Positions 2,533 through 63,931 of a stretch of DNA of 64,000 bases are shown here, one piece after another. The stretch lies in sequence record PQ850610.1; one strand, written 5' to 3'. This DNA is from Escherichia phage JacquesWildberger_Bas92. Each line of letters starts with the position of its first letter. The stretch's first letter is position 1. Position numbers and translations under genes: made by a program. The notes under the pieces are model-generated. The model did no database searches, was not told where the DNA came from, and saw only the letters and a list, made by a program, of their open reading frames with translations.

Positions 2533-3050
2533 ACAGTGTGACTGTTAGCCCTGCGTCTGTAGAAAGTCTAGAGACAGGGGCTACTCAGCAGTTTACTGCA
2601 AGCGCTGAGAAGAGTGACGGCTCTACCGAAACAACTGGCTTTACTTGGTCAGTAACAGGAGGCGGCTCTATCACTCAGTCTGGTTTGTATACTGCTCCGA
2701 GTGCGGCTCAATCCACTGATGTATCCATTACTGCGACTTTAGAGGGTGTTTCTGGTACAGCAACCATTTCTGAAATTGTTGATCCTGCCCCTACTATTGT
2801 AGCTAAGGGTCCAATTACAGGTAAAACTGGTGGTTCTTCCACTAACTTCACTACCATGTTTACTGTAACTAATTCTACTGCTGCGGATTACACGTTTGTT
2901 GTAACCCCTGAAGAAGCTGGTACAGTAAGCGCTGCTGGTGCGTTAACCTTAGATGATGCTGCAAGTGGCGAAGTTACTGTTCAAGCAAGTTTGACAGCTG
3001 ACCCGTCCATCAATGCAACATGCACTTTTACTGGTGTAACACCTGCTTAA
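2508..3050 (+). CDS. C-terminal extension of the capsid protein via -1 frameshift (Ig-like, Big_2-type domain)
   Basis: -1 frame is open from slippery heptamer GGGAAAG (2508-2514) to 3050; no RBS before the nominal GTG at 2538; translation shows a beta-rich Ig-like domain (TGATQQFTASAEKSDGS...WSVTGGGSITQSGLYTAP). Confidence 0.55.
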   Translation, partial: GKVGSATVDSVTVSPASVESLETGATQQFTASAEKSDGSTETTGFTWSVTGGGSITQSGLYTAPSAAQSTDVSITATLEGVSGTATISEIVDPAPTIVAKGPITGKTGGSSTNFTTMFTVTNSTAADYTFVVTPEEAGTVSAAGALTLDDAASGEVTVQASLTADPSINATCTFTGVTPA

Positions 3051-3057
3051 AATTAGA

Positions 3058-3081
3058 CCCTGCCTTCGGGCGGGGTTTTTT
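3058..3081 (+). terminator. rho-independent terminator after capsid module
   Basis: Hairpin ccctgcc-ttcg-ggcgggg followed by TTTTTT. Confidence 0.6.
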
Positions 3082-3109
3082 CGTTTTAAGACCTATACAA
3101 GCCAGCGTG

Positions 3110-3118
3110 TAATGTATA
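3110..3118 (+). promoter_or_regulatory. TAATGTATA motif (candidate phage-sigma promoter element)
   Basis: Exact TAATGTATA 34 nt upstream of the ATG at 3152, directly after a terminator; same 9-mer recurs upstream of other genes. Confidence 0.45.
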
Positions 3119-3151
3119 TTCTTTGTCTACATATAACAAGGAGGACAACCT

Positions 3152-3904
3152 ATGGCAATGCCAGATGTTCAATACCCCATCAATACCTATGGGTGGCTAA
3201 AGAAGGCCGTGGCCCTCTGGGCAGATAGGGACGATGACGAATTTGTTAATCAAATTCCAAACTTTATTAACTTTGCAGAGAAAGAGATTTATCGTAACTT
3301 ACGTATCCCTCCTCTGGAAAAAGAAGTGTATTTAGATATTAAAGATGGAGTAGCTTACATTCCTCCTGATTACCTAGAAGCTCAATGGATGATGAGAGCC
3401 AAAGATGGTACAATCTTCCAAGTAACCTCTCCTGAAGAGATTAGCTATCGTAGACAGCATGGAACAATTAATCCATCTCATTGGAATAACCAACCTGTTA
3501 ACTTTGCTCGTTTCGGTAGTCGTTTCATTTTCTACCCTAGCATCGAAGCAGATACTCCGTACTACCCTGATGATGGAAGCCCTTTGATTCCAGCAGAAAA
3601 CTCAGTAATTCTTAGCTATTATGCAGACCCACCGGAATTCCACGAAGATGAAGATACTAGTGCAATCCTCACTATCGCACCAGAACTTCTTCTGTATTTC
3701 ACTCTGCGTCATGCTTGCTTATTTGTTCAAGATGATAACGGAGTTCAGAAATGGTCAGCATTAGGAAAAGCTATCCTTGATGAAATGGTAGAACAGAATA
3801 AGAAACAAGAGTACTCAGGTTCACCTATCGCAATTCCGAATAACATGACTCGACTTCAGAGCAGCTTGCCTGATATTTATGGTATTCGTACTTCTCGTGT
3901 ATAA
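3152..3904 (+). CDS. virion structural protein (tail or adaptor region), function not assignable
   Basis: 250 aa ORF with AAGGAGG RBS; position between capsid and fibre genes. Confidence 0.55.
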   Translation: MAMPDVQYPINTYGWLKKAVALWADRDDDEFVNQIPNFINFAEKEIYRNLRIPPLEKEVYLDIKDGVAYIPPDYLEAQWMMRAKDGTIFQVTSPEEISYRRQHGTINPSHWNNQPVNFARFGSRFIFYPSIEADTPYYPDDGSPLIPAENSVILSYYADPPEFHEDEDTSAILTIAPELLLYFTLRHACLFVQDDNGVQKWSALGKAILDEMVEQNKKQEYSGSPIAIPNNMTRLQSSLPDIYGIRTSRV

Positions 3905-3913
3905 GGAGATAAT

Positions 3914-6562
3914 ATGATCGTTTATAATAACCAAGCACCTGATGCAGTGAATAACGTTGGGCAGTTTGGTGCTACTGAAGGTTCTATCGGAGCTTACAAG
4001 CAAGCAGCAGAATATGCAGCTGATTCTAAGTATTGGTCACTGTTGGCAGAGGCTAAGTTTGGTACAGTTGATGACTTGATTGCTCAGGTTGAGATTCTAT
4101 ACAAACAAGGTGTTCTATTAAAAGAAGATATTGAAGACTTAAAACAAGACTTCATTGCACAAGACTCTCGTTTGATGAACCTCATTGCTCAAACTAACGC
4201 AGCTGTAGCTGATGCAAATAATGCAGTTGCTCTGATTAATCAGAAACTTGTAGAAGTTCAGAATCAACTCGACGTTCTGTTGGGAATGTCTGTTGACGTA
4301 ACTACACTTCCTCCGGGAACTCCGGCTACTGGCTCTTTTAATCCGAACACTGGTGTAATCTCTCTGGGTATCCCAGAAGGTGATCCCGGAAAGGATGGTT
4401 CTGTTACTGACCTATCTGCTGCTCCTACCGGTACACCGGAGCTGGGGGACATCGGTTTCTATGTTGACAAAGATGATAACATTGTTCACAAAACAACTCT
4501 CGAAGATATTGCAAACCTGATCCCATCTGTTCGTTCTGTTTCAGTTAACGATGGCCCTGCGCTTGATGGTGAAGTTGCTCTTACACTCAACAAAGAGACG
4601 GTAGGTCTTGGGAACGTTTTGAACGTGGCTCAGTACAGCCGCCAAGAGATTAATGATAAGTTTGACAAAACAACTAAAACCTACCAATCGAAAGCCGAAG
4701 CTGATGCGGATGCTCAATACCGACAGGTAGGAGAAAAGGTTTTGGTGTGGGACTCAACGAAGTATGAATTCTATACTGTTGCAGCGAATAAAACCCTTAC
4801 TCCGGTTAAAACAGAAGGTCGTATCCTAACTGTTAACTCCCGTGCTCCTGATTCAACTGGTAACATCGATATCGTAATCCCAACAGGAAACCCATCTTTG
4901 TATTTAGGGGAGATGGTAATGTTCCCTTATGACCCAGCTAAAGCTGTCTCCTATCCGGGCATTCTTCCTGCGGACGGTCGTTTGGTGTCAAAAGAATCTG
5001 CTTTGGATTTAGGCCCATCCCTTATCAGTGGACAACTCCCTGTTGTTTCTGAAACAGAGTGGCAAGCTGGTGCTAAGCAGTATTTCTCTTGGGGTAAATT
5101 AGCCGATGGCATCACTGATGCAGATTCTACTAACTATATCAATATCCGTCTTCCTGATTGGACAGGCGGTGAGGCTATTCGATCCCCTGATTCTGTAAAA
5201 GACAGTGCATATAAAGGTAATGTTCAAAGTCAGGTCCCTTATGTAGTCACTGTAAATAACCAAGCTCCTGATGAGATTACAGGTAACGTCAATATCTCCA
5301 GATCTATCTTAGGTGCTGCTGCTGCTGGTGCAAACTCTGATATAACATCTATGACTGGACTTACGACAGCGCTGTCTGTTAATCAGGGTGGAACAGGGGC
5401 GAAGAATGCCAGTGACGCCAGATCTAACTTAGGACTTGGTTCTGTTTCTACATTAAACAATATTCCAGTAGAAAATGGTGGTACAGGTGCTAGTACTGCT
5501 GATGGTGCTAAGTCTAATTTAGGCGTAGACAGAATAGAACAAAGCTCTTGGGAGACTAAGATCTTTTCTCCGAATAGAGAAACCTACATGTTTGTCGATA
5601 ATAACGGATGGGGGTGTTACCGTACCACATCTGGATTGGCTGGTGATGTAGCTTTGTCAGTTGAAAGAGGGGGCACCGGAGCAACAAATGCTGTAGAGGC
5701 TAGATCTAACTTGGGTTTAGGTTCTGTTGCCACTCTTAGTAATGTACCAATCGCTAGTGGTGGTACAGGTGCTAGTGATGCTGCCGGTGCAAGGTTTAAT
5801 TTGGGGTTGGGAAATGTTTCTACTCTGGACAACGTACCAGTCGCTAGTGGTGGTACAGGTGCTAGTGATGCTGCCGGTGCCCGAAGCAACCTCGGAGCGC
5901 TGAGTAACACTCCAGCAAACACAGGTGCAGGTAATACTGGTGCGCGAGTCCAACATGCCACCGGAAGAGGTCTGTTTACTTTAGACATGTTTAACTGCTA
6001 CTGGTATATGCAGCCAGAGGATACTAACTTCTGGGTTGCCCACGGTGTGTCATATGCAGGGCCTAATGGCGAAGCCTCAGAGTATGGTCGTATATCTTAC
6101 GCAATAAAGATTGCAGATGGAACAACAAAATATGTCCATTGTCTTACAAACAAAAACACCATCATTGATACAGGCGGATTTATCAAAGCGGCATCTCCGG
6201 TAGTTAACATTTATGCCAACGGTCGGTATGAAACGAACGATGAGTCTGAGGGGGTTAGTGTCATCCGGCAGGGTATTGGTGAATATCTGATTACCGGTTG
6301 CCTCGGTCTTAACTCTGATGCAAGATGGGGTGGAGTGGATGGGGGGTTTGAAATCCCAACAGATCGCAACAAGCAACCTAGGATTTGGCTGGACTATGAG
6401 GTTAAAGAAGATGGTTCTATTTTAGTTAAAACCTATCACAGAACTCACCCAACCTCTCCAGTTTTTGCTAGAAACGAGATAGAAGGTTTTTCTGATGGGG
6501 ACCCTATTGATATTCCAAGTGATGCTTTTATCTCAGTTCGTGTAGAGATGCCAGCTGAGTAA
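3914..6562 (+). CDS. tail fibre-like protein with tandem Gly-rich repeats
   Basis: 882 aa; repeated ~30 aa units (SNLGLGSVSTL.NVP...GGTGAS.A.GA) typical of phage tail-fibre repeats; RBS aaggag. Confidence 0.65.
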   Translation: MIVYNNQAPDAVNNVGQFGATEGSIGAYKQAAEYAADSKYWSLLAEAKFGTVDDLIAQVEILYKQGVLLKEDIEDLKQDFIAQDSRLMNLIAQTNAAVADANNAVALINQKLVEVQNQLDVLLGMSVDVTTLPPGTPATGSFNPNTGVISLGIPEGDPGKDGSVTDLSAAPTGTPELGDIGFYVDKDDNIVHKTTLEDIANLIPSVRSVSVNDGPALDGEVALTLNKETVGLGNVLNVAQYSRQEINDKFDKTTKTYQSKAEADADAQYRQVGEKVLVWDSTKYEFYTVAANKTLTPVKTEGRILTVNSRAPDSTGNIDIVIPTGNPSLYLGEMVMFPYDPAKAVSYPGILPADGRLVSKESALDLGPSLISGQLPVVSETEWQAGAKQYFSWGKLADGITDADSTNYINIRLPDWTGGEAIRSPDSVKDSAYKGNVQSQVPYVVTVNNQAPDEITGNVNISRSILGAAAAGANSDITSMTGLTTALSVNQGGTGAKNASDARSNLGLGSVSTLNNIPVENGGTGASTADGAKSNLGVDRIEQSSWETKIFSPNRETYMFVDNNGWGCYRTTSGLAGDVALSVERGGTGATNAVEARSNLGLGSVATLSNVPIASGGTGASDAAGARFNLGLGNVSTLDNVPVASGGTGASDAAGARSNLGALSNTPANTGAGNTGARVQHATGRGLFTLDMFNCYWYMQPEDTNFWVAHGVSYAGPNGEASEYGRISYAIKIADGTTKYVHCLTNKNTIIDTGGFIKAASPVVNIYANGRYETNDESEGVSVIRQGIGEYLITGCLGLNSDARWGGVDGGFEIPTDRNKQPRIWLDYEVKEDGSILVKTYHRTHPTSPVFARNEIEGFSDGDPIDIPSDAFISVRVEMPAE
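5380..5900 (+). repeat. in-frame tandem repeat region inside the fibre gene (about 90 bp period)
   Basis: 47 bp at 5744-5790 and 5834-5880 identical except one base (gtacca[a/g]tcgctagtggtggtacaggtgctagtgatgctgccggtgc); more diverged copies upstream. Confidence 0.8.
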
Positions 6563-51825: not shown

Positions 51826-52055
51826 ATTTCCTCTCTTTGAATTTAAAAAAGGACTCTCCGAAAAGAGCCAAGCTTTAAATCCAAAAAAGATATTACCCAA
51901 TATCTGTGGATAACCTGCTCTTAAAATATCTATCCGACGGATGTTTGAGGAACACTCCTCGCCCTAGCATCGGCCCCATACGGGAAATAAATTAAGATTA
52001 GGTTAGTTGAGTCAGAATAACTCACATAGCCTTCTCCGGAAGAAGGCTATAGATG

Positions 52056-52289
52056 TTACTCGCCTTTCTTAGCACGATCTTTGGCAGTTTTGCCAGTGCG
52101 GATGCGGTGTGAAACGTTAACCAGAGTGCCGCCATCAACTACGGTAACGCTCTTGTTTTTAGCCAGATCAAACACAGCCTTCTCTGTGCCACCCAAGCGA
52201 ATTTGCTTAGGCTCACTGAAGGTTTGGGTTGATTTGGATTGGAACTGGAACGGTTGACGGATTGCATCAATTGCACTTACTTTAGACAT
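52056..52289 (-). CDS. hypothetical protein
   Basis: 77 aa ORF. Confidence 0.4.
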   Translation of the reverse strand: MSKVSAIDAIRQPFQFQSKSTQTFSEPKQIRLGGTEKAVFDLAKNKSVTVVDGGTLVNVSHRIRTGKTAKDRAKKGE

Positions 52290-52358
52290 AGGGGAAATTC
52301 CTTAAAAATTCATGGCTGCGTAGAGGGAATTCCCTACGCAAATTGGGCCGCCTAAAAA

Positions 52359-52383
52359 GAGGCGTCATAGTACTAAAAGGAGG
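52359..52383. repeat. copy 1 of repeated element ...GCGTCATAGTACTAAAAG...
   Basis: 18 bp identical to 57906-57923, similar flanks. Confidence 0.8.
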
Positions 52384-52589
52384 AGAGAAGAGGGCTTATT
52401 TAGCTACCTTTTTCTGACCATTTACGAACCAGATAATTGTGCCATCAGGCTGCCGTTGACCGAAGCCTTTAATAGTTAGCATGTCTTCCGAAAACTCTTT
52501 AAAAGTAATCATTTACTTATCCTTACATTAGAGTTAATATGATCTCTGCTTTGGCAAACTTCTCACCAACTTCGAGAGTATCAGCAATC

Positions 52590-52835
52590 CTACTCCTGAA
52601 CCACAGACATACGAATCATTTCCACCGGAGTGTCACCCTTCATAACACCCAGCACACCAGACATAAGGTTAACTGTGGTAATCCAGTCTTTTTCTACAGA
52701 GATTTTGCTGGACACATTGGCAACACGCATATAATACTGAGGTGATGCTGAACCTCGCTGGACTACGAAAGGATTTCCGGGGATGATAGTATCCAGCGGA
52801 TGTGTGTTATCTTTAATCTTAGGGATAATTTTCAT
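52590..52835 (-). CDS. hypothetical protein
   Basis: 81 aa ORF. Confidence 0.4.
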   Translation of the reverse strand: MKIIPKIKDNTHPLDTIIPGNPFVVQRGSASPQYYMRVANVSSKISVEKDWITTVNLMSGVLGVMKGDTPVEMIRMSVVQE

Positions 52836-52843
52836 CTTGATTC

Positions 52844-53155
52844 CTATTTAAGTTTGAGGCTGATATTAAGGTGCATACACGCCCTGTTCTGTACAGCGGC
52901 ATAACTTCTGCCGAGCATGTCTGCCATTCTCTGAATAGGCATGAACCCAGCATTACGAATAACAAACTGATCTTCTTCTTCCGTCCACTTGACACGAAGA
53001 GTAGCTCTGGAAATTTTGAACTTGGTACAGGCTGTGTTAACAGCATTCTCTGTAACATTCATAATCTGAGCAACCTCTTGAACCGAGTACTCTTTGATCA
53101 GTCTCCGAAGATTTTCAATCTGCATCGGAGTCCATATAGTTCTTCGTGCTTTCAT
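52844..53155 (-). CDS. DNA-binding protein with two tandem HTH-like units
   Basis: 103 aa; two similar segments starting WTPMQIENL... and WTEEEDQFV..., each followed by a helix-turn-helix-like stretch. Confidence 0.45.
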   Translation of the reverse strand: MKARRTIWTPMQIENLRRLIKEYSVQEVAQIMNVTENAVNTACTKFKISRATLRVKWTEEEDQFVIRNAGFMPIQRMADMLGRSYAAVQNRACMHLNISLKLK

Positions 53156-53649
53156 ATACCCTCCAATTAAACATTTATATAAGACTTGCTTAGATAAAGA
53201 TTCAATAAAATAGGGGGAGGGGACGAATCCTCCCTTATCCTATTAATTAGTATTGCATGTAAGACCTAACAATCGGTTTCCTTTGTAGGAATAAGCGTTA
53301 TGCTCATCCAGCACTAAACTCCCGCCCCCTTAGTGGGCTGGGTTATTAAAGGGTAACGCCCTTATGGGCTAGTTACGTGAATGTTAGTTTGATAGGAGAT
53401 CTGAAGTCCTATCTCAAAGGACTCTCGTAAGAATCCTTCACGATAAGCTCTTAATATACTAATCCGTGTAAGAGAAACACTCTCTTAGTTAACTCTGCTT
53501 TAGCTCTGTAATAAGCCGTAGAACCTAACAGGCGGCTCTTAACAAAGAACTTGATGTCATTGCTTACGTCTTGTATTAAACGCTCCTGTACAGCTTCTGA
53601 GGAGCTATTAATTGAATCAATTAACACCTTTGTAGATGTGTAATTCACA

Positions 53650-53931
53650 TCACCACTCCTTACCGGTTGTAGTTGTAGAGCCACCACACCACTGTGCATT
53701 AGATAAGGTTTTAGTCTCCTCATCCATTGCTGCACCATTCATGCATGAGATACCATTGTAACGCATATCAATTTCGCCAGAAGGAACCTTCTCACCTTTA
53801 TGCCAGCGAGATACACAAATACCTTCCACTGCTACTGCACACCATCCATCAGGACGGCTCTGTACGCAGCCTGTAAGGGCCACACAGACAATGAAGATAC
53901 AGATTAAGGATATTACACCACCCCAACTCAT
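53650..53931 (-). CDS. lipoprotein
   Basis: 93 aa; signal peptide with lipobox LTGC (ICIFIVCVALTGC). Confidence 0.5.
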   Translation of the reverse strand: MSWGGVISLICIFIVCVALTGCVQSRPDGWCAVAVEGICVSRWHKGEKVPSGEIDMRYNGISCMNGAAMDEETKTLSNAQWCGGSTTTTGKEW

Positions 53932-53950
53932 AACTATCTCCTAATTGATT

Positions 53951-53980
53951 TGGTGCGCCCTACAGGATTTGAACCTGTAA
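53951..53980 (-). pseudogene. tRNA 3' fragment (T-arm, acceptor 3' strand and CCA) without a 5' half
   Basis: Minus strand reads ACAGGTTCAAATCCTGTAGGGCGCACCA; no complementary GCGCCCT 5' strand or D/anticodon arms could be folded in the 79 nt up to the next tRNA. Confidence 0.35.
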
Positions 53981-54029
53981 CCAATAGCTTAGAAGTAAAA
54001 CTTCTATCCTTGTAATGAAGTTTTCATTG

Positions 54030-54104
54030 TGGCGTTCCCTCGTGGAATCGAACCACGAATAAGAGCTTAGAAGGCTCCAGTTATATCCGTTTAACTAAGG
54101 GAAC
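54030..54104 (-). tRNA. tRNA-Arg (anticodon UCU)
   Basis: 75 nt cloverleaf folded by hand: acceptor GTTCCCT/AGGGAAC, D stem GTTA/TAAC, anticodon stem GGAGC/GCTCT with loop CTTCTAA, T stem CGTGG/CCACG with loop TTCGATT, discriminator G, encoded CCA. Confidence 0.8.
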
Positions 54105-54110
54105 ATTACA

Positions 54111-54461
54111 ATGAAAACTTGCACAACCTGTCACACCCAAAAGGAAGATTCAGATTTTTACAAGAAAGGAGATCGACTTCATTCTATGTGTAAACAATGT
54201 TTCAATGCCTACTGTATTGAACGTTGGAGGCAAAGAAAGACTCAAGCGGTTAAAGATTTCGGAGGTAAATGTCATGACTGCAATCAAGAATACCCCGATG
54301 CAGTCTTTGATTTCCACCACCTAGACCCCTCTGAAAAAGATTTTGATTGGAATAAACTTAGACTCCGATCTATTGACTCTATCAGAGAAGAGTTAAGCAA
54401 GTGCGTAATGCTCTGTGCTAACTGCCACCGTATTCGTCACATTGATTACCCTATCCATTGA
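54111..54461 (+). CDS. HNH endonuclease (lone plus-strand gene in the minus-strand block)
   Basis: 116 aa; CxxC...C.DC...HHLDP...NCHRIRH pattern. Confidence 0.7.
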   Translation: MKTCTTCHTQKEDSDFYKKGDRLHSMCKQCFNAYCIERWRQRKTQAVKDFGGKCHDCNQEYPDAVFDFHHLDPSEKDFDWNKLRLRSIDSIREELSKCVMLCANCHRIRHIDYPIH

Positions 54462-54535
54462 GCTAAGAGCGCTTAATTTATTTAGATCATATCTCGCTTG
54501 GTGATAGGACCACACACTTTACATTCATACCAACC

Positions 54536-54787
54536 TTAAGCACATGCAGGGAGTGTGATGATTTCAGGTTTACCTTCGAACTCTTCAAACAAACCCAAGA
54601 ATGTAGGGCTATACGTACCAGTACAAACAAACTCATCAAAGAGTTCATTGTATGAGGGCTTAATCTTCCAAGCCCACACATAGCCCATCTTATCAATTGC
54701 AATGTAACGAGTGTTTAGAGGAACAGTCATCATCACACCATCAACTTCGACCACTTTAGTGATTGGTGCAGCTTGGAAGTTTTTCAT
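54536..54787 (-). CDS. hypothetical protein
   Basis: 83 aa ORF. Confidence 0.4.
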   Translation of the reverse strand: MKNFQAAPITKVVEVDGVMMTVPLNTRYIAIDKMGYVWAWKIKPSYNELFDEFVCTGTYSPTFLGLFEEFEGKPEIITLPACA

Positions 54788-54812
54788 ACTTTACCCTTAA
54801 TTAAAACAACAA

Positions 54813-54836
54813 AGGCCACCCGATTGGGCAGCCTTT
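54813..54836 (-). terminator. terminator-like hairpin with T runs on both sides
   Basis: aaaggccaccc-gatt-gggcagcc-tttttt; the same hairpin type recurs at 32935 and 27665. Confidence 0.45.
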
Positions 54837-55286
54837 TTTATTTGTTAACTGTTATAGATCCAATTACCTTGCTTGTTACGGATAGTGGACATTGCATGAA
54901 CCCAGAAGCCTTCCAGTTTCAGAGCACCATTAGTTACTGCATCCATACGTTCAGGGCGGTTCATACGTTTGGTTGATACTTTCATACCTATCTCTCTCTT
55001 TGTTAGTGGAGGCATTATTGCCAGTTGATATAGCAGATAACCCTATTAAAAGGACTACCGACTATCTAAACTGGTGAAGACTCCCTACCCCTAGAGAGTC
55101 TCCTGAATCCCAAACCAATATGTACCCCTACATATCGGAAAGTCTACCGAAAATTAACAGGTTTTAGTCTAACACCGGATGTTCGAGCAAGCTCTCCCTA
55201 GCGGTGTGGCATATGCCTGATTTAATAAGTTAATGAGGAACACCCTCACATAGCCCTCTGATAAGCACAAGGGCTATAAGTCGGTG

Positions 55287-55583
55287 TTACTTGTCGGCTT
55301 CAATCTCTTGATGCTTAGCTATAGCTACTCTCAAGTCCTCATTAGCACGAGTAAGGCGTAATACTTCATGGTTGAGATTCTGAAGACGCTTGTTTCTATC
55401 TTCAACTTGCGTAATAAGATCATTAAGAGTTTCTTTAACTTTCTCACTATACATCTCATCCACTCGGACTAGAGATTTGTACATTCTCTCCCAGCTTGCT
55501 GCTTTGTTCCTAAGGATAATAAATCCTATAACGCTGATAGTTAAACAGCTTACAAAAAGGAATTTATATATCTCTAAAGTCAT
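55287..55583 (-). CDS. membrane-anchored coiled-coil protein
   Basis: 98 aa; N-terminal hydrophobic segment then charged helix. Confidence 0.4.
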   Translation of the reverse strand: MTLEIYKFLFVSCLTISVIGFIILRNKAASWERMYKSLVRVDEMYSEKVKETLNDLITQVEDRNKRLQNLNHEVLRLTRANEDLRVAIAKHQEIEADK

Positions 55584-55782
55584 ATTATTTACCCTTTATC
55601 AGAGATTAAAAGTAATATTATTTAAGTAAGTTATATTTAGTAAACTTATTTTCTAAGAAATTTTCAAAGGGTCTATATACAGAGCATTACCCATAGTCCC
55701 AGAACACTACCATCTTTTTCAATAAATTTACTAAGTGGTTGGTTTATAAAGGAATTTAGTTTGTCAAATCTGGCACTAGAGA

Positions 55783-56172
55783 TTATTCCCTAGAGCTATT
55801 ATCGAACACTAAATCACCACAATACATAGGATTGGCATACCATTTTGGCACCCCTTCGCTCTTACTCTGAAAGTAAGTCCCACTATACAGCGGAACATAA
55901 TTCTTCTTAAGGGCACGTTTAGCAAGTCGCTCGCTTTCTCCAATGGCTTGCTTAGTCATCGGATTTTTATCACGAATCAGCTTTACATAACGTTTATAAG
56001 GTTTCTCCTGTTTTAATAGTACCGGAATCCACTCAAACTGGTTCTTTTGTCTTATCACCTGTTCAGCGGTCAGTTTTCGTTGGGCCATTCTATTTATCAC
56101 GGTATCCGCAACTAAAGCCTTACATGCGGTTGGCTGATTCCCTGCCTCATAATAAATAGTCAATGTCAACAT
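55783..56172 (-). CDS. cell-wall hydrolase (SleB-like)
   Basis: 129 aa; YYEAGNQ...VADTVINR...QF.W pattern of the SleB-type family. Confidence 0.55.
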   Translation of the reverse strand: MLTLTIYYEAGNQPTACKALVADTVINRMAQRKLTAEQVIRQKNQFEWIPVLLKQEKPYKRYVKLIRDKNPMTKQAIGESERLAKRALKKNYVPLYSGTYFQSKSEGVPKWYANPMYCGDLVFDNSSRE

Positions 56173-56426
56173 TAGCTGGGCCGTTGTTATCAGAACTTGC
56201 TACCTCCTCTCAGGATAAAACACCTTTCATGTATGCCTTACTCGAAGCCCTCCTTGTGGCTTTTAGTATGGATTGCTTAGCCTTAGTCTTAGCTTCTTCT
56301 GTCATTCCATCAAAAACACCGAGCTTAGTTAGCTCCTTACTAGGAGGCTTATAGGAAGGGTTTAAAGCATTAGATAAATTATGACCATAGGCATGACCAC
56401 GGCACAATAAAGAAGAAAGATTAAGC

Positions 56427-56792
56427 CTATGGATTTACACATTGACCGTTACCGGATGCGATTTCATTCATTGACTCATCAAACAAGGTTAGGGATGAGC
56501 GCATCAAGTGATCGACCGTGATTTGTTTACCGGTAGTTTCATTTACCAGTTGAATAGTTTTATCATATGATTGCACATGATCGAAATCATTTACATGCAA
56601 AATAATAACTTTAGGTGACTTTTTACCAGTCGAATAGTTTTCTATCAAATAGGTGCACTGTAAACCTTCCACCGTATCAGGGGAAAATGTTGCAGCCTTT
56701 ACACTACCCATAGCCGATAGGAGAACGCCCAGCAGGAGAACGACCAGAAAAAAACCTACAACCATTTTAATGATGAATTTAATAAACCACAT
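56427..56792 (-). CDS. secreted or membrane-anchored protein
   Basis: 121 aa; N-terminal hydrophobic signal-like segment. Confidence 0.4.
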   Translation of the reverse strand: MWFIKFIIKMVVGFFLVVLLLGVLLSAMGSVKAATFSPDTVEGLQCTYLIENYSTGKKSPKVIILHVNDFDHVQSYDKTIQLVNETTGKQITVDHLMRSSLTLFDESMNEIASGNGQCVNP

Positions 56793-56895
56793 AACTATAA
56801 ACCTTTTAATCAGAGGATGTAAGAATAAAGCATATCAGCGACGAATAACGCCACTGTAACGACGAATAAGCAACGCCAGAAAAAATCATTAAGCA

Positions 56896-57141
56896 TCATT
56901 TTAATCCGTGATTCAGTAGGTTCGCCAGTGATAGCCCACCGTCAAAATAAATTGAACGGAAGTCATCGCGGGTAATTTCAATCCCTACAGCAGATAACCA
57001 ATCTTTGGCCTTTTTAAAATCCATGACGCAGAAAGTAACGGTCGGGATTATTACATCACCAGCTTGCAAGCTAAACGCAATAAAAGTATCACACACAAAA
57101 CAAGAAAATCCGCTAGACAATTTAACTTCTTTGATAGCCAT
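56896..57141 (-). CDS. hypothetical protein
   Basis: 81 aa ORF. Confidence 0.35.
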   Translation of the reverse strand: MAIKEVKLSSGFSCFVCDTFIAFSLQAGDVIIPTVTFCVMDFKKAKDWLSAVGIEITRDDFRSIYFDGGLSLANLLNHGLK

Positions 57142-57155
57142 AATTTTAACCCTTA

Positions 57156-57644
57156 TTATTTAGCACTGATGCAATTAGCTAGGTTGATGTGTACGGTATA
57201 AACCGCATTATTCTCACTATTGTAAACCGTGGTGGCAAGCATTGATTCGTTTATCGGGCCATAACTGACTAGATTTGTAACAGCTTTCGCATGTTTGTAA
57301 CGTTGTACAGTGCCAAATGTAACTAGTTCGGGATCGTTATCAGTGCGCTTTAATAGCAAATCATCATTGCCCTGATTATCTAGTGTTTTGGTACTAACGA
57401 CCAGACCATCACGGGAAACGTTACTAAATTTAACCTTTAAGACGATTTGATTGGTGTCACTATCCGCACCGTTACAGATTAACCATTTGTTAGGTGCATC
57501 CTTCACGAACAAACTAGCGGCATTATTAGCAGAAGCAGAACTAGCGATAGCGTTGTCAGAAAAAGAAGTTACCAGTGCACTGACACCGATGGCTGTAACC
57601 AGTGCATAACTTGCCAGATTAATAGTCTGCATTACTTTCGCCAT
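57156..57644 (-). CDS. secreted protein with signal peptide
   Basis: 162 aa; N-terminal signal-like sequence (LASYALVTAIGVSALVTSFS). Confidence 0.45.
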   Translation of the reverse strand: MAKVMQTINLASYALVTAIGVSALVTSFSDNAIASSASANNAASLFVKDAPNKWLICNGADSDTNQIVLKVKFSNVSRDGLVVSTKTLDNQGNDDLLLKRTDNDPELVTFGTVQRYKHAKAVTNLVSYGPINESMLATTVYNSENNAVYTVHINLANCISAK

Positions 57645-57751
57645 TTTTGCTACTCCTTAGATAGAATCAATTAACTATTGCCACTTCTATAATACAAAGA
57701 CGGTATTCAAGGTTACTACTCATACTTATACCTCCTGTTTTACGGGCATAA

Positions 57752-57781
57752 AAAGCCCCAGCCGTAGCCGGGGCAAACCTG
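57752..57781 (-). terminator. rho-independent terminator (minus strand)
   Basis: Minus-strand hairpin ccccggc-tacg-gctgggg followed by TTTTT. Confidence 0.5.
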
Positions 57782-57901
57782 AAAGCAACGCATGACCGTT
57801 GCTATAAATACACTCGCAAATGCACTTACAGCAACGCAAAAAGCCGCTCAAAGGCGGCTATGTGGAAGCTTCAAATGGGGAGAGGGCACGACGCGGCAGA
57901 A

Positions 57902-57929
57902 AGAGCGTCATAGTACTAAAAGAGGGGGG
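57902..57929. repeat. copy 2 of repeated element ...GCGTCATAGTACTAAAAG...
   Basis: Matches 52359-52383. Confidence 0.8.
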
Positions 57930-57940
57930 CTGCATTCCTA

Positions 57941-58384
57941 CTACTTAACCCTTGCTTCTTTGATGGGGTCAATGTATTTTTCAACTCCCCACTTGCGTTT
58001 ACTGTCAGCGTAGAAAACATCAGGTGCACACTGGCTTGTCTTAGGAAATGCTTGCGGGTCTTTCGTGCTACCTTTAAACTTCTGTTTACCACGGGTGCGA
58101 CCATTACAGAAGATCTCTAACTTCTTCTCTTCTTCTGTTTTAGCGCCACCGCTCCGTAATAAAGAGCGTTTATGATCGGCTAACAATAACGCATCAGCAC
58201 GATGGACACGATGACCTAAACGTTTTGCCACACTGGAAGGAATATGAGATTCAGCTTCAGCCTTTGCAGCACGACGCTTTAAACTACGCTTGCTAACGTG
58301 ATTGGTTGCCTTTGGTTTCTCTTTCTCCAATTCAGAAATAGAAAAACAACGCCCGCCCTTCATGCTGATTTTAGATTTAGCCAC
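57941..58384 (-). CDS. basic hypothetical protein
   Basis: 147 aa, Lys/Arg-rich. Confidence 0.4.
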   Translation of the reverse strand: MAKSKISMKGGRCFSISELEKEKPKATNHVSKRSLKRRAAKAEAESHIPSSVAKRLGHRVHRADALLLADHKRSLLRSGGAKTEEEKKLEIFCNGRTRGKQKFKGSTKDPQAFPKTSQCAPDVFYADSKRKWGVEKYIDPIKEARVK

Positions 58385-58453
58385 TATCTTATTCCTTTCA
58401 GTGATAAGTTATATCGGGCAAGCCCATCAAGGCGATAGGCTTGAACAAATAAC

Positions 58454-58663
58454 TCAACCAAGTAAACCAAATGATTTCCAACTACGCAGTAAGATCGTAC
58501 CATCATCCATAGTTACGCATAATTTTAGTAGTCGCTTACTGGTACTGCTCACCGTTGTGATTCGTCCGGTTGTGCATTTACCTTTATTGCTATAAAGATA
58601 TATAACACGATGGCCTAACAAACGAGATGGCGCTTTCTTAAATTCTGAGATGTTAGTGATCAT
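58454..58663 (-). CDS. hypothetical protein
   Basis: 69 aa ORF. Confidence 0.35.
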   Translation of the reverse strand: MITNISEFKKAPSRLLGHRVIYLYSNKGKCTTGRITTVSSTSKRLLKLCVTMDDGTILLRSWKSFGLLG

Positions 58664-58881
58664 TATCCATATACCTTAACATGATTGATTCGACGTGAAT
58701 GATGATAAGAAGACTCAACAGCCATTGCCTTTAATTCTTCTTTTCGTTGGTTAGTGTGTACAATATCCCAATGATTATGATCGTGTTGGCGCTGTAATAT
58801 CTTACTACATTTGCGATGGTTTCCCGTGCTGCGACGTTTCTCACAAATAGGACACTTGCCAAAATTATTACTGAATATCAT
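58663..58881 (-). CDS. Cys/His-rich small protein
   Basis: 72 aa; CPICEK...H..C...HDHNH. Confidence 0.35.
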   Translation of the reverse strand: MIFSNNFGKCPICEKRRSTGNHRKCSKILQRQHDHNHWDIVHTNQRKEELKAMAVESSYHHSRRINHVKVYG

Positions 58882-59105
58882 TTTCTCAATCCTAACTTTC
58901 TTAAGACACGGCCTAACGTTGTTTCTTGGGTGATAATATACCTGACCGCTTCACGTTCCAACGTTTCAATCTTCATTGGCGACGGATACCATTCACCGGT
59001 AAGCATACACCTATACTCAACGCCATACTTTTTAGATAGGCGGTAATGTTGACCGTTGATAAGGTTCCTATAAATCGTGGTATGCGTCGTTAACATAATC
59101 GTCAC
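58878..59105 (-). CDS. hypothetical protein
   Basis: 75 aa ORF. Confidence 0.35.
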   Translation of the reverse strand: MTIMLTTHTTIYRNLINGQHYRLSKKYGVEYRCMLTGEWYPSPMKIETLEREAVRYIITQETTLGRVLRKLGLRK

Positions 59106-59208
59106 CTTTGATTAGATTCTTTGATTAGTACACTGAATCAATGCACTGATAAAAGAAAAGGCGCTACCCGTTAAAGATAGCGCCTCATGTTTATTTAGAT
59201 TGTCTTAC

Positions 59209-60117
59209 TTATGCCGCCTGACGTGCCGCCATAATTTCAGCCGCTTTACGCAATACTTCTTCCTCTTCTGCTTTCGCCGCTTGTTCGGTACGGGTAGCAA
59301 CCGTTGAAGAGATACGACCGCGCAGACTTTCTAACTTCTCTTGCATAGCTGCGATGGTCTTTTCCATTTCATCAGCGTATGAATCCAGTGATTCCAATTC
59401 CTTGCTTGATGCGTTCATCAGATAATCATCCGAGATCGCTACCGTTGAGGCCGTCACTTTCTTGATGAGTGAGTCGAATGACTTCTTAACCTTGCCGACT
59501 TCTTCACTTAAGGCAATAGTGTTATCACTGGTAGCGCCGTTGCGCTCATCGGCCAACAATTTTGCTTCAATACGGATTGCATTCAAGCGTTCAACTAAAG
59601 CGTAAATATCCTGATTAAAATCTTCCTTGTTTTTCGCCGGGATTTGCAGATGGGCCGCCACGTTGTCATTGCAACCTTTATAAAAGTTAGGATTATCCAC
59701 TTCAATTGCACGACCTAAAGCAAAATTCTCGAAAGCATTCGACCAGCGAGCGCGGTTTTGTTCCATTTTGGCCTTAATTTGCGCTTCTTTCGCATCTTCT
59801 TTCGCTTTCGCCTCGCCTTCCAGATTAATCCATTTTTTACGACCGTTCGCCGCCTCGGTGTTAAACTTGATTGGAGTTAAGAAAGTAATTGCAGTGGCAA
59901 TAACATCCATATCGCGGAAACGTTCAGTTAACAGAAAATCGACCGCCGCTTGCAATACATCTAACTTTTTACCGTTGCTGCGAAAGTGCTGCAAATGCCC
60001 TAAAAGGAAGTTAGAAACATCTTGTTTAATCGCCGCGTTATTTTTGCGGATGTTGTTTGCCAGCGCGTTAAAACCGGATTCTTTTACCAGATTAAAAACT
60101 TTAGCCATGATATTCAC
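59209..60117 (-). CDS. hypothetical early protein (helical, 302 aa)
   Basis: First long ORF downstream of the leftward promoter array. Confidence 0.45.
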   Translation of the reverse strand: MNIMAKVFNLVKESGFNALANNIRKNNAAIKQDVSNFLLGHLQHFRSNGKKLDVLQAAVDFLLTERFRDMDVIATAITFLTPIKFNTEAANGRKKWINLEGEAKAKEDAKEAQIKAKMEQNRARWSNAFENFALGRAIEVDNPNFYKGCNDNVAAHLQIPAKNKEDFNQDIYALVERLNAIRIEAKLLADERNGATSDNTIALSEEVGKVKKSFDSLIKKVTASTVAISDDYLMNASSKELESLDSYADEMEKTIAAMQEKLESLRGRISSTVATRTEQAAKAEEEEVLRKAAEIMAARQAA

Positions 60118-61035
60118 CTTTCAATTATAAGGGCACTATTGCCCCGCTCGCTATGAGCTTTTAAGCCATTATTGACTTAGCTATAGTCACTCACTAATAA
60201 ATAACTATAGGTAAGCGGAGCGGTCTTATCAGGAGTTAACCTTGCCGCTCCCTTATCCGTGGTCTTTCATCTGGTGGATTCAATTAATCGCTATAAAGAA
60301 AGCCGATTTGCCAGCGATGATCAATCACCACAATAAGGCTAGTGTGTCCGACCCTAATTAGTTACAATAATGCAACCGTCGGCAATATCGTTTACTTTGC
60401 TTTCGCTCCCGCCTATCCTTTTATATCAGCTCTTTATCGCTAGTCATCGCCCACTACGGGATACTATTGCGAAAAAGTCACTAACCGCCTATTATTCCGG
60501 CGTTTTATATCTTTCAACGGGTTTACTACATTACCCGACTATGTACTTTCATCATCAGACGAATCTCAAGCCGTTCGCATCGTAAACGTTCACACTGACA
60601 CCTTATTGTTAAATAGCAATTCGCTACTCTTTAACCGTTCGCCGCCGCTCTCAATTGAGCGTTAATTCGTCGGGATTGCCTACCCTGATCAACTTCTTTC
60701 ACCGTAGCGCCTTTTTAGCTAGGCCGCCGCTACCCATTAACCGTGGGCGATTAGTTTTAGCCTTGCGTGCACTCGATGAATCCGCTTATCAGTGGTGACG
60801 TTTCCAGTTAAGGGATTGTAAAGCTGTTTACCCTGATAATTTAGGGAGCTTTACGCCGTTTTATCTGGTATGTTTTCCGATGGTCATTATCATCCAACAT
60901 ATGCAACCGATATAGGGGAACGTTTAAATTATTAAAGAGCGGTAAATCTGTCAGTGTGCTTTCTCACACTACGCAACTGTTAGCCGTTGTGTCGCTTTTT
61001 CACTGAAGCGGTGATTTGCTTAGTGACTTGTGCTC

Positions 61036-61064
61036 ATTATGAACCATGTTGTTTTAGTTGTCAA
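61036..61064 (-). promoter_or_regulatory. sigma70-type promoter, leftward (TTGACA-17-CATAAT)
   Basis: Minus strand reads TTGACAactaaaacaacatggttCATAAT. Confidence 0.5.
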
Positions 61065-61195
61065 TCACTTTTTTAATCTTTTTTCGTCGCTCCCCTTATT
61101 GGGAGGATATATCAATCAGCTATATTTGATTGAAGATTAAGCGATGAATGCTTAAACTTATGATTCATATTTTTAAAGAGCGGTGGAGCATTTAC

Positions 61196-61224
61196 AGCTT
61201 AACACGTCGTGTTAGCTTGTCAAT
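61196..61224 (-). promoter_or_regulatory. weaker sigma70-type promoter, leftward (TTGACA-17-TAAGCT)
   Basis: Perfect -35 but poor -10; A-rich tract upstream on minus strand. Confidence 0.3.
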
Positions 61225-61345
61225 CTCTTTTTTTATCGTCTTCTTTGATTCTCTTCCCTTATCTCGCTTGATTCTATGCGAAAGGGCAAGACGATAATTT
61301 TTTAAAGAGCGAGATGTTTTAAGTCATCGCTGACCTTGTACACTC

Positions 61346-61373
61346 ATTATAGGTTAGGCTTTTCAGTTGTCAA
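61346..61373 (-). promoter_or_regulatory. consensus sigma70 promoter, leftward (TTGACA-16-TATAAT)
   Basis: Minus strand reads TTGACAactgaaaagcctaaccTATAAT. Confidence 0.6.
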
Positions 61374-61789
61374 ATACTTTTTCAAGTATTTTTTCACTTT
61401 CTAGCCTGATTTTTAAAGAGCGGGGCAATTTCTTGCCTTGTATGTTTTACATCGTACCCGATGGAAATGAGTATACGCGAGCCTTTAGAAAGTGCAATAG
61501 GGGAAAGCAAATTATTTTAAACTTTTTCACTGTAGGGAAGATAGAAGAGCGGGCTGACGTGGTACACCATAGAAAACGGCTTGTAAAGCGATAAGAAACG
61601 GCCTTGAACGCGCTACAGTGAGCTAAAAGGGAGTAAGGAATACAACCCCCTTAGAAAAGAGAAAAGCCTCATGGTGAGGCTTATGGGAATGATTTAAAGC
61701 ATCAGATAGATTATGACCGCAGAACAGACCACGGGAAACGTGCCAGATAATGCGGTAGTAATATTCCACTTAAATAATCATCAACTCAT

Positions 61790-61863
61790 AAAAGAAAAGA
61801 ATAAAAGAAACGCTGAAAAAGAAAAGAATAAAAGAAACGCTGAAAAAGAAAAGAATAAAAGAA
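61790..61863. repeat. 27 bp tandem direct repeat, 2.7 copies
   Basis: aaaagaaaagaataaaagaaacgctga at 61790-61816 and 61817-61843, partial third copy. Confidence 0.9.
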
Positions 61864-62053
61864 ATAATCATCCACTTTATTAATATATACATCATTATTG
61901 CACTCATAATTATCACCATTGAAACTATTATCAACGTAACTATGGGGATGGCGATAGTTGCTATCCGGTATTAATAGCCTCGATATAATCAAGCCTTTAC
62001 TAGTTCGTTATCAGTGCTAGCCTTTCCCATACTCTTTAAGGGGGCACTAAATA

Positions 62054-62062
62054 AACGGGTAT
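62054..62062 (+). promoter_or_regulatory. AAATGTATA (1 mismatch to TAATGTATA), about 200 nt upstream of the first rightward gene
   Basis: Read from sequence; weak. Confidence 0.25.
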
Positions 62063-62261
62063 TAAATGTATAGGATGGTATACACGGGGCAATAACTGCA
62101 CGGGATAGGGCACGGGAAAAGTGGAACGTTGAAAAAGAAGGTAAAGGCATTGCCAATATCCCTTTTTTAAATGAGGACTCCCCCTTTTTAACAATTCGCC
62201 GCGGAGTGCCTAGCCCCACTCGGTCAAATCAGAATTTTAAACTCTTATATATAAGGATGAG

Positions 62262-62409
62262 TATGAATCTGGACACTAAAGAGTTCATTGAGATTGCAAT
62301 AGAAAACAACTTAAAGAAAGTATCAAATCCCTCTCTTCCAGATGGTGAACGGGTAGAAGCAGTCTCTTTAGTATTAATGCTAACTAAGGCTTTACGGGAG
62401 ATGGAATGA
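62262..62409 (+). CDS. small hypothetical protein (49 aa)
   Basis: Second ATG of the track ORF, preceded by AAGGA with 5-nt spacer. Confidence 0.35.
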
Positions 62410-62567
62410 ATCTAATTAAAGTATTTAGACGAATGAAATGTAAGCACAATTACTATCTTCTTCGTAAAGCTTACGGGGATGAAAGAATACACGGGCTATA
62501 CTTATCAACATGGAAATGTAAGGAATGTGGTAAGCTTAAACACAGCACATGGATGGATAGGCCTTAA
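62406..62567 (+). CDS. small Cys-containing protein (53 aa)
   Basis: My own translation (MNLIKVFRRMKCKHNYY...WKCKECGKLKH); start overlaps previous stop. Confidence 0.3.
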   Translation: MNLIKVFRRMKCKHNYYLLRKAYGDERIHGLYLSTWKCKECGKLKHSTWMDRP

Positions 62568-62706
62568 CGTGACTAGGCCTTAACATGATGTCCCCTTTAT
62601 GACATGCCCTTTACTTCAGCGTACACGGGTTATTGGTATGAGGGTAGTCATCAGAGATGACATGGCCTTTACGGGTAGGTCTTATGATGTGCCCTTTATA
62701 CTTCAG
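62559..62706. repeat. cluster of short direct repeats (TGATGTSCCCTTTA..., AGGCCTTAAC x2, GACATGSCCTTTAC x2)
   Basis: Read from sequence upstream of the 62748 gene. Confidence 0.7.
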
Positions 62707-62747
62707 AGACAGCTACTACGTAGCGTCGTATTCAGAGGAGAAGAATT

Positions 62748-62969
62748 ATGAATTTAGTATTAGACTTTTTATCAGAGGTTGTGCCTCGCTTTCGTACGGA
62801 GACTTGTGCCTTCGTTAAAATATCCCCTGAAGAATTAGAATGCATTGGTCGTCTGGTTGACTTGGATGACGATGAAGAATTTGATGCAACGATGGAAGTT
62901 AGTAGCCTAGGATGGTTATTCTTCCGAGCGTTCACCACTATCAAACCACACACTTATAAGGAATACTAA
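62748..62969 (+). CDS. acidic small protein
   Basis: 73 aa; RBS agaggag; D/E-rich core. Confidence 0.45.
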   Translation: MNLVLDFLSEVVPRFRTETCAFVKISPEELECIGRLVDLDDDEEFDATMEVSSLGWLFFRAFTTIKPHTYKEY

Positions 62970-63002
62970 TTTATGTTAGATTGTAAATATCAAGGAGATG
63001 AT

Positions 63003-63432: not shown

Positions 63433-63460
63433 GTTGTTGATAATGTAGAAGGAGTATAAA

Positions 63461-63931
63461 ATGTTTGGAGAAAACGGAGAACTCACACCTGCACAGGTAG
63501 CTGAGATTACAGGAAGATTACCCGGAGTAACGGAAGAACTTGAATCCAAGGGTATGAACCCAAGCAATGGGAAGTTTCAAAAGGGAAATAAATTCGGACG
63601 ACCCAAAGGTAGTAGAGGTAAACTGACACAATTAATGTTGGACCGTGTTGCTGCAAGTCATTTGTCTCCTGATGAAGTGTTAATTCAAATTTACGAAGAT
63701 CCTAATATTCCACCTGATCTTAGATTCAAGGCTGCATCAAAAGTTGCAGATCTGGTATATCCTAAGGCGGCCTCTGTTGAAGTTAAGATTGAGGAAGAGA
63801 ATGTAGTCAACGAAGAATCACTGAATGCACAAATCAAGGACTTCTTGACTGGAGCACTTGGTATCGACGTTATGCCTCCAGAAGACAACTCCGAGGACGC
63901 TGAAAAGGGGGAGGAAGCGGACGAGAGTTAA
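63461..63931 (+). CDS. possible terminase small subunit (GRPKG-motif DNA-binding protein)
   Basis: 156 aa; N-terminal NGKFQKGNKFGRPKGSRGK motif and acidic C-terminus; RBS aaggag; position at start of rightward block. Confidence 0.35.
   Translation: MFGENGELTPAQVAEITGRLPGVTEELESKGMNPSNGKFQKGNKFGRPKGSRGKLTQLMLDRVAASHLSPDEVLIQIYEDPNIPPDLRFKAASKVADLVYPKAASVEVKIEEENVVNEESLNAQIKDFLTGALGIDVMPPEDNSEDAEKGEEADES

Follow-up and report, generated by a model that had tools for sequence, protein, structure and literature searches.

In Escherichia coli, boxA is the host anti-termination signal of the ribosomal RNA (rrn) operons, and lambdoid phages use it together with the N protein. The rrn boxA reads UGCUCUUUA, with the flanks CACugcucuuuaacaauuua, the lambda nutL site reads cgcucuuaaaaauuaa, and the CUUUA form of boxA is the consensus one and also the stronger, the affinity of NusB/E for boxA being in the nanomolar range (PMC2724277). 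The functional gamma-proteobacterial consensus has been given as GYTCTTTAANA (PMC5725501), and a protective role of boxA is known for long untranslated RNAs (rRNA, CRISPR arrays), as is its help in the folding of rRNA (PMC7665894, PMC5725501, PMC10250234); at CRISPR arrays and in the suhB 5' untranslated region it serves a long untranslated RNA or the regulation of a downstream gene (PMC7665894, PMC5725501). Among phages of the phiEco32 group, SU10 has three early sigma70 promoters, ttgacaccgaaaacagcctgatatatagt, ttgacaagctaacacgatgtgttaagctgtaaatg and ttgacagcgaaaacaacatgattcataatgagcaca, located "between CDS120 and CDS121" (PMC4281155, S2 Table), and phiEco32 shares these three and has one further upstream as well as a terminator (PMC4281155). 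Here we describe the corresponding region of Escherichia phage JacquesWildberger_Bas92, analyzed within a stretch of 64,000 nucleotides (nt) of sequence record PQ850610.1, referred to below as the window. Leftward early promoters alternate in this region with copies of a short box that we identify by its sequence as boxA, and the last copy is followed by a long structured leader RNA. We consider it probable that the whole is an early control region built from promoter-boxA modules in the manner of an rrn operon, in which boxA recruits the Nus complex for transcription of the leader and the early genes. The promoters were already known from SU10 and phiEco32; the boxA array and the structured leader are the new part. 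In the literature that we searched, which did not extend to Savalia 2008 and Pavlova 2012, no paper ties phiEco32 or Kuravirus to boxA, anti-termination or a non-coding RNA.

The promoter-boxA array

The array lies in a non-coding gap between the first leftward open reading frame (ORF), which begins at 60108, and the first rightward ones, at about 62206/62264. An earlier, sequence-only reading of the window had described this gap of about 2 kilobases (kb), three leftward sigma70 promoters within it and at least four copies of a box. Gap, promoters and boxes are all real; the box, ATT(A/T)TTAAAGAGCG(G/A), occurs at 60928-60942, 61169-61183, 61298-61312 and 61409-61423, the copy at 60928-60942 having one mismatch (TTATT for TTTTT). 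In the order of transcription, with (-) denoting the minus strand, the elements of the array are:

61542..61552 (-): degenerate boxA-like sequence CGCUCUUCUA, upstream of P4; CGCUCUUUUA in most relatives
61470..61497 (-): P4, candidate promoter, upstream-most; TTGCAC (61497..61492), 16 nt, TATACT (61475..61470); predicted start about 61463
61423..61440 (-): hairpin GGCAA-GAAA-UUGCC, directly 5' of boxA4; kept in relatives with loop insertions, while other module types have different hairpins at this site
61409..61422 (-): boxA4, CGCUCUUUAAAAAU; about +41 from the predicted start of P4; conserved in relatives
61346..61373 (-): promoter P3, TTGACA-16-TATAAT, 12/12; A-tract upstream; predicted start about 61339; homologue of the SU10 promoter at 73996
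61298..61311 (-): boxA3, CGCUCUUUAAAAAA(UUAUCG); about +28 from the predicted start of P3
61196..61223 (-): promoter P2, TTGACA-16-TAAGCT with a TG extended -10, 9/12 plus TG; predicted start about 61189; homologue of the SU10 promoter at 73668
61169..61182 (-): boxA2, (CAC)CGCUCUUUAAAAAU; about +8 from the predicted start of P2
61036..61064 (-): promoter P1, TTGACA-17-CATAAT, 11/12; AAAAAAGTG upstream (UP-element-like); predicted start about 61029; homologue of the SU10 promoter at 73511
60953..60970 (-): hairpin AGUGUG-AGAAAG-CACACU, 12 nt 5' of boxA1
60929..60941 (-): boxA1, CGCUCUUUAAUAA(UUUA); about +88 from the predicted start of P1; final box ahead of the leader

On the transcribed (minus) strand the box reads CGCUCUUUAA(A/U)AAU, for which the reference forms are UGCUCUUUAACAA in rrn and CGCUCUUA in lambda. 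All four boxes match GYTCTTTAANA perfectly and all carry the rrn-type CUUUA. Judged by this transcribed-strand sequence, the repeated box is boxA; the sequence-only reading had suspected an independent protein-binding or RNA element, which was right but unspecific. The motif is also concentrated in the array. The minus-strand 13-mer CGCTCTTTAAAAA, with one mismatch or none, occurs in the window at the four box sites only, all on one strand. There are four matches to GCTCTTTAA in the window versus 0.81 expected and five to GYTCTTTAANA versus 0.54 expected (about 9-fold over-representation), four of the latter five within a cluster of 500 base pairs (bp). The chance that four GCTCTTTAA matches would fall on one strand within 500 bp is, for placement alone and by our own calculation, about 1e-7.

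The absence of a fixed distance between box and promoter, which had been remarked on before, holds for all modules, the boxes lying at +41, +28, +8 and +88 from the predicted starts of P4 to P1. In all four cases the box is found on the transcribed strand, 3' of its promoter and in the 5' part of the predicted transcript. Because the distance varies and the box is on the transcribed strand, an RNA signal fits and a promoter element is excluded. We also considered the box as an UP element of the next promoter; this was ruled out, as the boxes lie 49, 88 and 118 nt 5' of the next -35.

The CAC just 5' of boxA2 is the same as in the rrn leader oligonucleotide CACugcucuuuaacaauuua, and boxA3 in SU7-type relatives reads CGCTCTTTAACAATTTATCG, identical to rrn boxA and its spacer. 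boxA1 agrees with rrn boxA and spacer at 15/16 positions in the window and at 16/16 in NC-B, PAS59 and others; across 25 aligned sequences it has a single variable position (U/C), the rest being invariant. In the hairpin 5' of boxA1, three of the six pairs covary (AU/GC; GC/AU; UA/CG/AU/GC). Plus-strand terminators were looked for in the array as well, and only the copy at 61420-61441 resembles one.

P1, P2 and P3 have perfect TTGACA -35 hexamers with A-tracts upstream; their hexamers stand 16-17 nt apart and are conserved while the spacer sequence drifts, and their homologues are conserved at 28/28 related loci. By sequence comparison, P3, P2 and P1 are plainly the homologues of the three SU10 early promoters and hence already known. 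In phiEco32 the corresponding promoter spacer, between gp124 and gp125, measures 1.94 kb. P4 matches the consensus at 3/6 positions of the -35 and 5/6 of the -10, and it was missed by the consensus scan because of its poor -35. Its hexamers are (near-)invariant in 10 related phages, the 16-nt spacer between them being scrambled, and this combination is a promoter signature; P4 is therefore likely to be a fourth early promoter in the window, weaker by consensus match. Promoter-like sites are no more numerous in the region than in shuffles (8 versus 6.2), so that the promoters stand out by their quality and by the conservation of particular sites, not by number. The likening of the region to the multi-promoter early region of T7, transcribing leftward, was apt: like A1-A3, the promoters are near a physical end of the genome, here the right one, and directed inward. 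The spacer of P2 is filled by an imperfect palindrome, AGCTTAACAC-GTC-GTGTTAGCT (61197-61219), which could be an operator; relatives with a P2 of the TAAGCT type retain it.

One part of the sequence-only reading has to be given up, namely that the modules are tandem repeats of about 120 bp. Tandem Repeats Finder reports no such repeats, and the spacing is uneven for the boxes (241/129/111) as well as for the promoters (159/150). Self-comparison yields no copies alignable over a period of about 120 bp; the modules share only two short blocks, one of 33-40 nt comprising the A-tract and TTGACA (about 79-80% identity) and the other being the 13-15-nt box itself.

For conservation of the array, we compared 28 loci from 27 distinct phages of three genera, together with 6 metagenomic contigs. 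Every array shows the same alternation, with 3-5 TTGACA promoters and 3-6 boxes, and in the related arrays successive strong promoters are, with few exceptions, separated by a box. From the 28 loci we gathered 116 boxes (75 distinct 40-mers) by searching for GCTCTTTA. Positions outside the searched 8-mer are near-invariant (-1 C/U, +8 A, +10 A, +11 A, +12 U), and the sole variable position of the box corresponds to the C of rrn boxA and to the N of GYTCTTTAANA. Some boxes of relatives start with U, as rrn boxA does, and several read GCTCTTTAACAATTTA, identical at 16/16 positions to the rrn boxA-spacer oligonucleotide of PMC2724277. The flanks on both sides of the box are recombined in differing combinations among phages and the box is unchanged; the flanks being mosaic, the box is what selection keeps. 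A scan of IMG/VR with the bare 14-mer CGCTCTTTAAAAAT returned scattered single matches only and is uninformative.

The structured leader RNA

Between the promoters and the first start codon there are 0.84-1.3 kb of untranslated RNA. The portion that follows boxA1 forms a structured leader with these parts:

60130..60928 (-): structured untranslated leader, about 800 nt (about 840 nt with the 5' hairpin and boxA1)
60928..60630 (-): domain I
60629..60611 (-): hairpin
60609..60330 (-): domain II
60329..60261 (-): domain III
60251..60217 (-): hairpin with an invariant 21-nt loop
60210..60181 and 60145..60130 (-): 3' hairpins

Long-range helices close the three domains of the fold, the first helix beginning with the nucleotide that directly follows boxA1, and several loops are invariant. 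From 25 distinct sequences RNAalifold predicts 229 pairs, 77 of them compensatory. boxA1 is unpaired in this consensus fold except for three invariant pairs without covariation support, which we removed. The remaining 226 pairs, in 37 helices, are paired in 99.1% of cases versus 92.8% in shuffles and 36-46% when slid, and 78 of them have changed on both sides, compared with 41 +/- 3 in shuffles (none of 500 reaches 78) and 8-11 when slid. The leader helices contain 569 G.U cells versus 19 A.C cells, and the molecule that folds is therefore the leftward RNA rather than the DNA or the opposite strand; a structure at the DNA level (a cruciform) is ruled out by the same counts.

Protein coding does not explain the conservation of this gap. 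From boxA1 to the ribosome-binding site (RBS) the sense strand has no ORF above 23 amino acids (aa), and the variable columns are distributed by phase as 127/127/123, versus 85/56/247 in the adjacent gene. Mean pairwise identity is 86.6% in the leader versus 82.9% in that gene. Leaders differ by up to 29% across genera, with the box core invariant. A search of Rfam with positions 59500-63000, both strands, gave no match to the leader at E<=1. A host origin was ruled out, as searches of 5,426 E. coli genomes gave no match to the leader and no exact motif turned up among 185,579 species genomes. The leader RNA is previously undescribed, and it is among the better covariation-supported large RNAs without a family.

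Several further observations concern the leader. The LAMP leader has about 35 extra, unrelated nucleotides in the periphery of domain II (alignment columns 485-505 and 557-567), with the other parts of the fold kept; the insertion marks a tolerant, variable arm. A perfect 12-nt complement exists between 61418-61429 (boxA4 and hairpin arm, AUUGCCCCGCUC) and 60138-60149 (just before the RBS, GAGCGGGGCAAU), and pairing of the two would bracket the entire leader like the leader-trailer helix of rRNA. We rejected it as such a helix: it shows no covariation, and two local hairpins make use of its 3' segment, a compensatory change being present in both. In the GenBank records of L010 (UKE3, 2330-4000), H10 and H16, both strands of array and leader are overlaid with "hypothetical proteins", 6-11 in number and 30-50 aa long, which are almost certainly not genes.

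Proposed mechanism and competing explanations

We propose an anti-termination role for the boxes because a long, structured, untranslated RNA separates the promoters from the first start codon. Tandem strong promoters, boxA and such an RNA are together what makes up an rrn-like unit, and all are present here. In the mechanism that we infer, host RNA polymerase would initiate at any of P4-P1 once the DNA enters. The host NusB-NusE(S10) dimer would bind the nascent boxA, NusA, NusG and SuhB would join, and the polymerase would become an rrn-type anti-termination and RNA-chaperone complex. This complex would transcribe the leader of about 840 nt without ribosomes, resisting Rho and aiding formation of the long-range helices, and transcription would proceed into the first early gene and perhaps beyond its 3' terminator. 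With one box per promoter, each transcript would have a box near its 5' end whichever promoter it came from. We suggest, much more tentatively, that array and leader are a phage imitation of the rRNA operon, in which tandem UP-element promoters and rrn-type boxA would draw in the host's rRNA anti-termination and chaperone complex, the abundant, first-made, multi-domain RNA of about 840 nt, from an undescribed family, having a function of its own and being not merely a 5' untranslated region. That function would lie in host takeover, in anti-defence, or in the capture of Nus factors or another host protein.

The features directly downstream of the leader are:

59209..60108 (-): first early gene, 299 aa, phiEco32 gp124 homologue; RBS AAAGGUGA at about 60117-60124
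59158..59186 (-): strong intrinsic terminator directly 3' of the first early gene; 12-bp stem and U-rich tail, UUCUUUUAUC

The first early protein belongs to a PHROG of unknown function and has no Pfam domain. Additional strong intrinsic terminators are found in the leftward early operon at 57842-57859, 57755-57774 and 54811-54836 (-), and in 52000-60200 there are 15 terminator-like sites versus 5.9 expected, so that the early region looks segmented by terminators.

Some observations weigh against the proposed anti-termination role. The leader is G-rich, not C-rich (GC skew -0.2 to -0.3 on the plus strand), and may be a poor substrate for Rho anyway; the same argument has been made for rRNA. 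Single-sequence folds pair parts of boxA2-4 weakly, and in these folds boxA is not clearly single-stranded in every module. The distant relative 7-11, a Salmonella phage, has at its right end about 1 kb of non-coding DNA 5' of its first early gene (88864-89916), a leader with neither boxA nor similarity to the one described here. Finally, there are strong intrinsic terminators in the early operon, and boxA alone may not explain expression of the downstream early genes: rrn-type anti-termination acts at Rho-dependent terminators only (PMC2724277), and for this reason read-through of 59186..59158 by boxA-modified polymerase is in doubt.

The same downstream terminators speak for a different explanation, in which the boxes belong to lambda-type nut sites, boxA and an adjacent hairpin (a boxB analogue) acting with a phage N-like protein in an anti-termination that passes intrinsic terminators. 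Hairpins do stand beside most boxes, among them GGCAA-GAAA-UUGCC 5' of boxA4 and, 3' of it, a covarying AUACUU-GAAA-AAGUAU with an A-rich, GNRA-like loop, and boxA3 with its spacer resembles lambda nutL (cgcucuuaaaaauuaa). However, the sequence and position of the hairpins vary by module, whereas an N protein requires one defined boxB, and the boxes are of the consensus CUUUA form, which is N-independent in rrn (PMC2724277). None of 20 early ORFs matches an anti-termination family in PHROGs, which is a weak argument, as N-like proteins are short and diverse. A defined boxB 3' of boxA together with an N-like protein was not found, the protein search being a weak one, and we regard nut sites as unlikely here. 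A decoy role, in which boxes on abundant early RNA would titrate NusB/S10/SuhB away from host rrn operons and so shut off the host, draws on the number of high-quality boxes (four to six) that follow 3-5 strong promoters, on the presence of several boxes on each transcript from upstream promoters, and on the nanomolar affinity of NusB/E for boxA (PMC2724277). The preserved order and the single box per promoter are better suited to a role in cis, and as the explanation of the array we find titration very improbable; the two roles are compatible, and it is possible that a decoy effect comes in addition to the cis role.

Two other explanations do without an RNA signal. A 13-15-mer that recurs close to a genome end, in non-coding control DNA and at varying distances from the promoters, could be an operator or iteron for a host or phage protein, serving early shut-off, replication initiation or control of genome entry. 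Yet the box lacks dyad symmetry, its orientation is strict in 116 copies, and it is always located inside transcribed sequence, after a start site and ahead of the next promoter; a DNA site would moreover leave the 12-13-nt match to boxA, and the variants toward rrn (U at position 1, C at position 10), as an unexplained coincidence. We therefore hold such a site to be improbable, if slightly less so than titration. The boxes could also be functionless remains of a recent tandem duplication, young copies of a module, and duplication or loss does occur, since the number of modules varies between phages (3 to 5 promoters). But the modules have diverged so far that everything separating the two short blocks is no longer recognizable, the flanks are reshuffled, and the core does not vary among genera with leaders up to 29% different. 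The conservation pattern contradicts this last explanation, and we give it almost no credence.

If a boxA-dependent, rrn-like unit is indeed what the array forms, each early promoter of a virulent podophage that encodes a sigma factor is followed by a boxA of the consensus rrn type, and phages would have a second, N-independent route for borrowing the Nus machinery of the host. How early transcription is sustained in 7-11 remains to be defined (PMC8948821); the boxA array is a candidate answer for the phiEco32 subgroup, not for 7-11, whose right end is without boxA. About 100 coliphages that are candidates for therapy have the leader RNA, which is accessible through phages that grow on E. coli K-12 (BASEL Bas86-94). 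For annotation, the consequence is that GenBank records contain up to a dozen spurious "hypothetical proteins" over the array and leader stretch.

Genome context and comparison with known systems

The closest matches of the region 60100-62300 (2.2 kb) are ManiMatter_Bas94 (90.5%), AidaStucki_Bas93, O18-011, MN05 and LAMP, and for this reason we place the window in the 67-69-kb Kuravirus clade set out in PMC11990801. The source phage is, by these matches, a phiEco32-like E. coli podophage (Kuravirus, LAMP/Bas94 clade). For the region as a whole, matches come from about 98 records of Escherichia/Shigella phages in the phiEco32 group (Gordonclarkvirinae), and the gp124 homologue together with the region is limited to about 97 Escherichia/Shigella phages; IMG/VR adds just 5 further loci of the region, and a metagenome scan 6 further kuravirus-like contigs.

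The 193-bp direct terminal repeat of phiEco32/SU10 aligns to window positions 62019-62190 (homologous stretch 62019-62211). Since the terminal repeat lies inside the window, the assembly is circularly permuted and its repeat is collapsed; the right end of the physical genome is near 62211. The homologue carries a CCCTTTTTTA-N10-CCCTTTTTA motif, which is known to sit 21 nt from the end of the terminal repeat (PMC4281155). By this homology, the promoters are located 840-1180 bp from the physical right end and directed inward. An inward array 0.8-1.2 kb from the end would suit transcription-assisted entry of the DNA if that end were the first to enter. Features of this part of the window are:

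61664..61682 (-): intrinsic terminator, closing transcription that arrives from the right; SU10 homologue at 74441
about 62160-62190: CCCTTTTTTA-N10-CCCCCTTTTTA, within the terminal-repeat homologue

The terminator at 61664-61682, which in SU10/phiEco32 ends the gp128-gp125 operon, is retained though the genes upstream are absent in the window's clade: gp125-128, the upstream genes of the phiEco32 array, are missing from the array position, and a gp125-like ORF occurs elsewhere, at 56427-56792. Between this terminator and the terminal repeat is an A-rich stretch (61790-61870) with 2.8 copies of the 27-bp unit AAAAGAAAAGAATAAAAGAAACGCTGA, two of them 100% identical. The promoter motif of the phage sigma factor (gp36), tAATGTAtA, has a match inside the terminal repeat (TAAATGTATAGG, 62064-62075, plus strand), where the phiEco32 repeat reads AATGAATA, and another 5' of the ORF at 63461 (GATAATGTAGAAGG, 63441-63452, plus strand). 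In the early region, three ORFs of 81-121 aa (56896-57141, 56427-56792 and 55287-55583, minus strand) belong to PHROGs that bear the labels "polymerase", "terminase" and "DNA helicase", which are implausible at such lengths and recur in GenBank records of relatives (e.g. SU10 gp121 "terminase"). A tRNA-Arg gene (anticodon TCT) is located in the same region at 54030-54104 (-).

Among known systems, phiEco32 and SU10 share with the window the three promoters and their location, the spacer that separates the gp124 homologue from that of gp125. In the texts that we consulted, the descriptions of these promoters do not mention boxA or a structured leader (PMC4281155), and, unlike phiEco32, the window's clade lacks gp125-128 upstream of the array and has a fourth promoter. 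The A1/A2/A3 promoters of T7 provide a similar layout, with at least three strong promoters for host polymerase, 110-160 bp apart, about 1 kb from a terminally repeated end and directed inward. The leader of T7 is short, and we know of no boxA array in that phage. With lambda nutL/nutR the array shares a boxA shortly 3' of early promoters, by its sequence a site for host NusB/E, and a boxA3 with spacer like that of nutL. The lambda boxA, however, has a weaker form, CGCUCUUA, and depends on boxB and N, whereas the boxes described here are consensus and repeated, their neighbouring hairpins are non-uniform, and a weak search of 20 early ORFs yielded no N homologue; the phage is also virulent and unrelated to lambdoids.

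The boxA sites of CRISPR arrays and the suhB 5' untranslated region follow the same consensus outside rrn (PMC7665894, PMC5725501), but are single chromosomal boxes, whereas the phage has an array coupled to tandem promoters. GOLLD, ROOL and OLE resemble the leader in being multi-domain RNAs of hundreds of nt, associated with phages and of unknown function; the leader differs in having no Rfam match at E<=1, in being a 5' leader continuous with mRNA, and in its restriction to Gordonclarkvirinae. The rrn leader of E. coli, with its tandem P1/P2 promoters and their UP elements and its boxB-boxA-boxC anti-terminator, differs in having one boxA, with another in the spacer, compared with 4-6 boxes, one per promoter, in the phages. 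Inspection of the phage array, without a dedicated test, brought no boxC to notice, the candidate leader-trailer helix of the phage lacks covariation, and the phage leader of about 840 nt continues into mRNA and has no similarity to rRNA or E. coli sequence. Otherwise the two are built alike: tandem strong sigma70 promoters with A-tracts upstream, a CUUUA-type boxA with the spacer AAUUUA (16/16 in relatives, 15/16 in the window), a hairpin that often precedes boxA as in the rrn order, and a long-range helix right after boxA that opens a long, structured, untranslated RNA.

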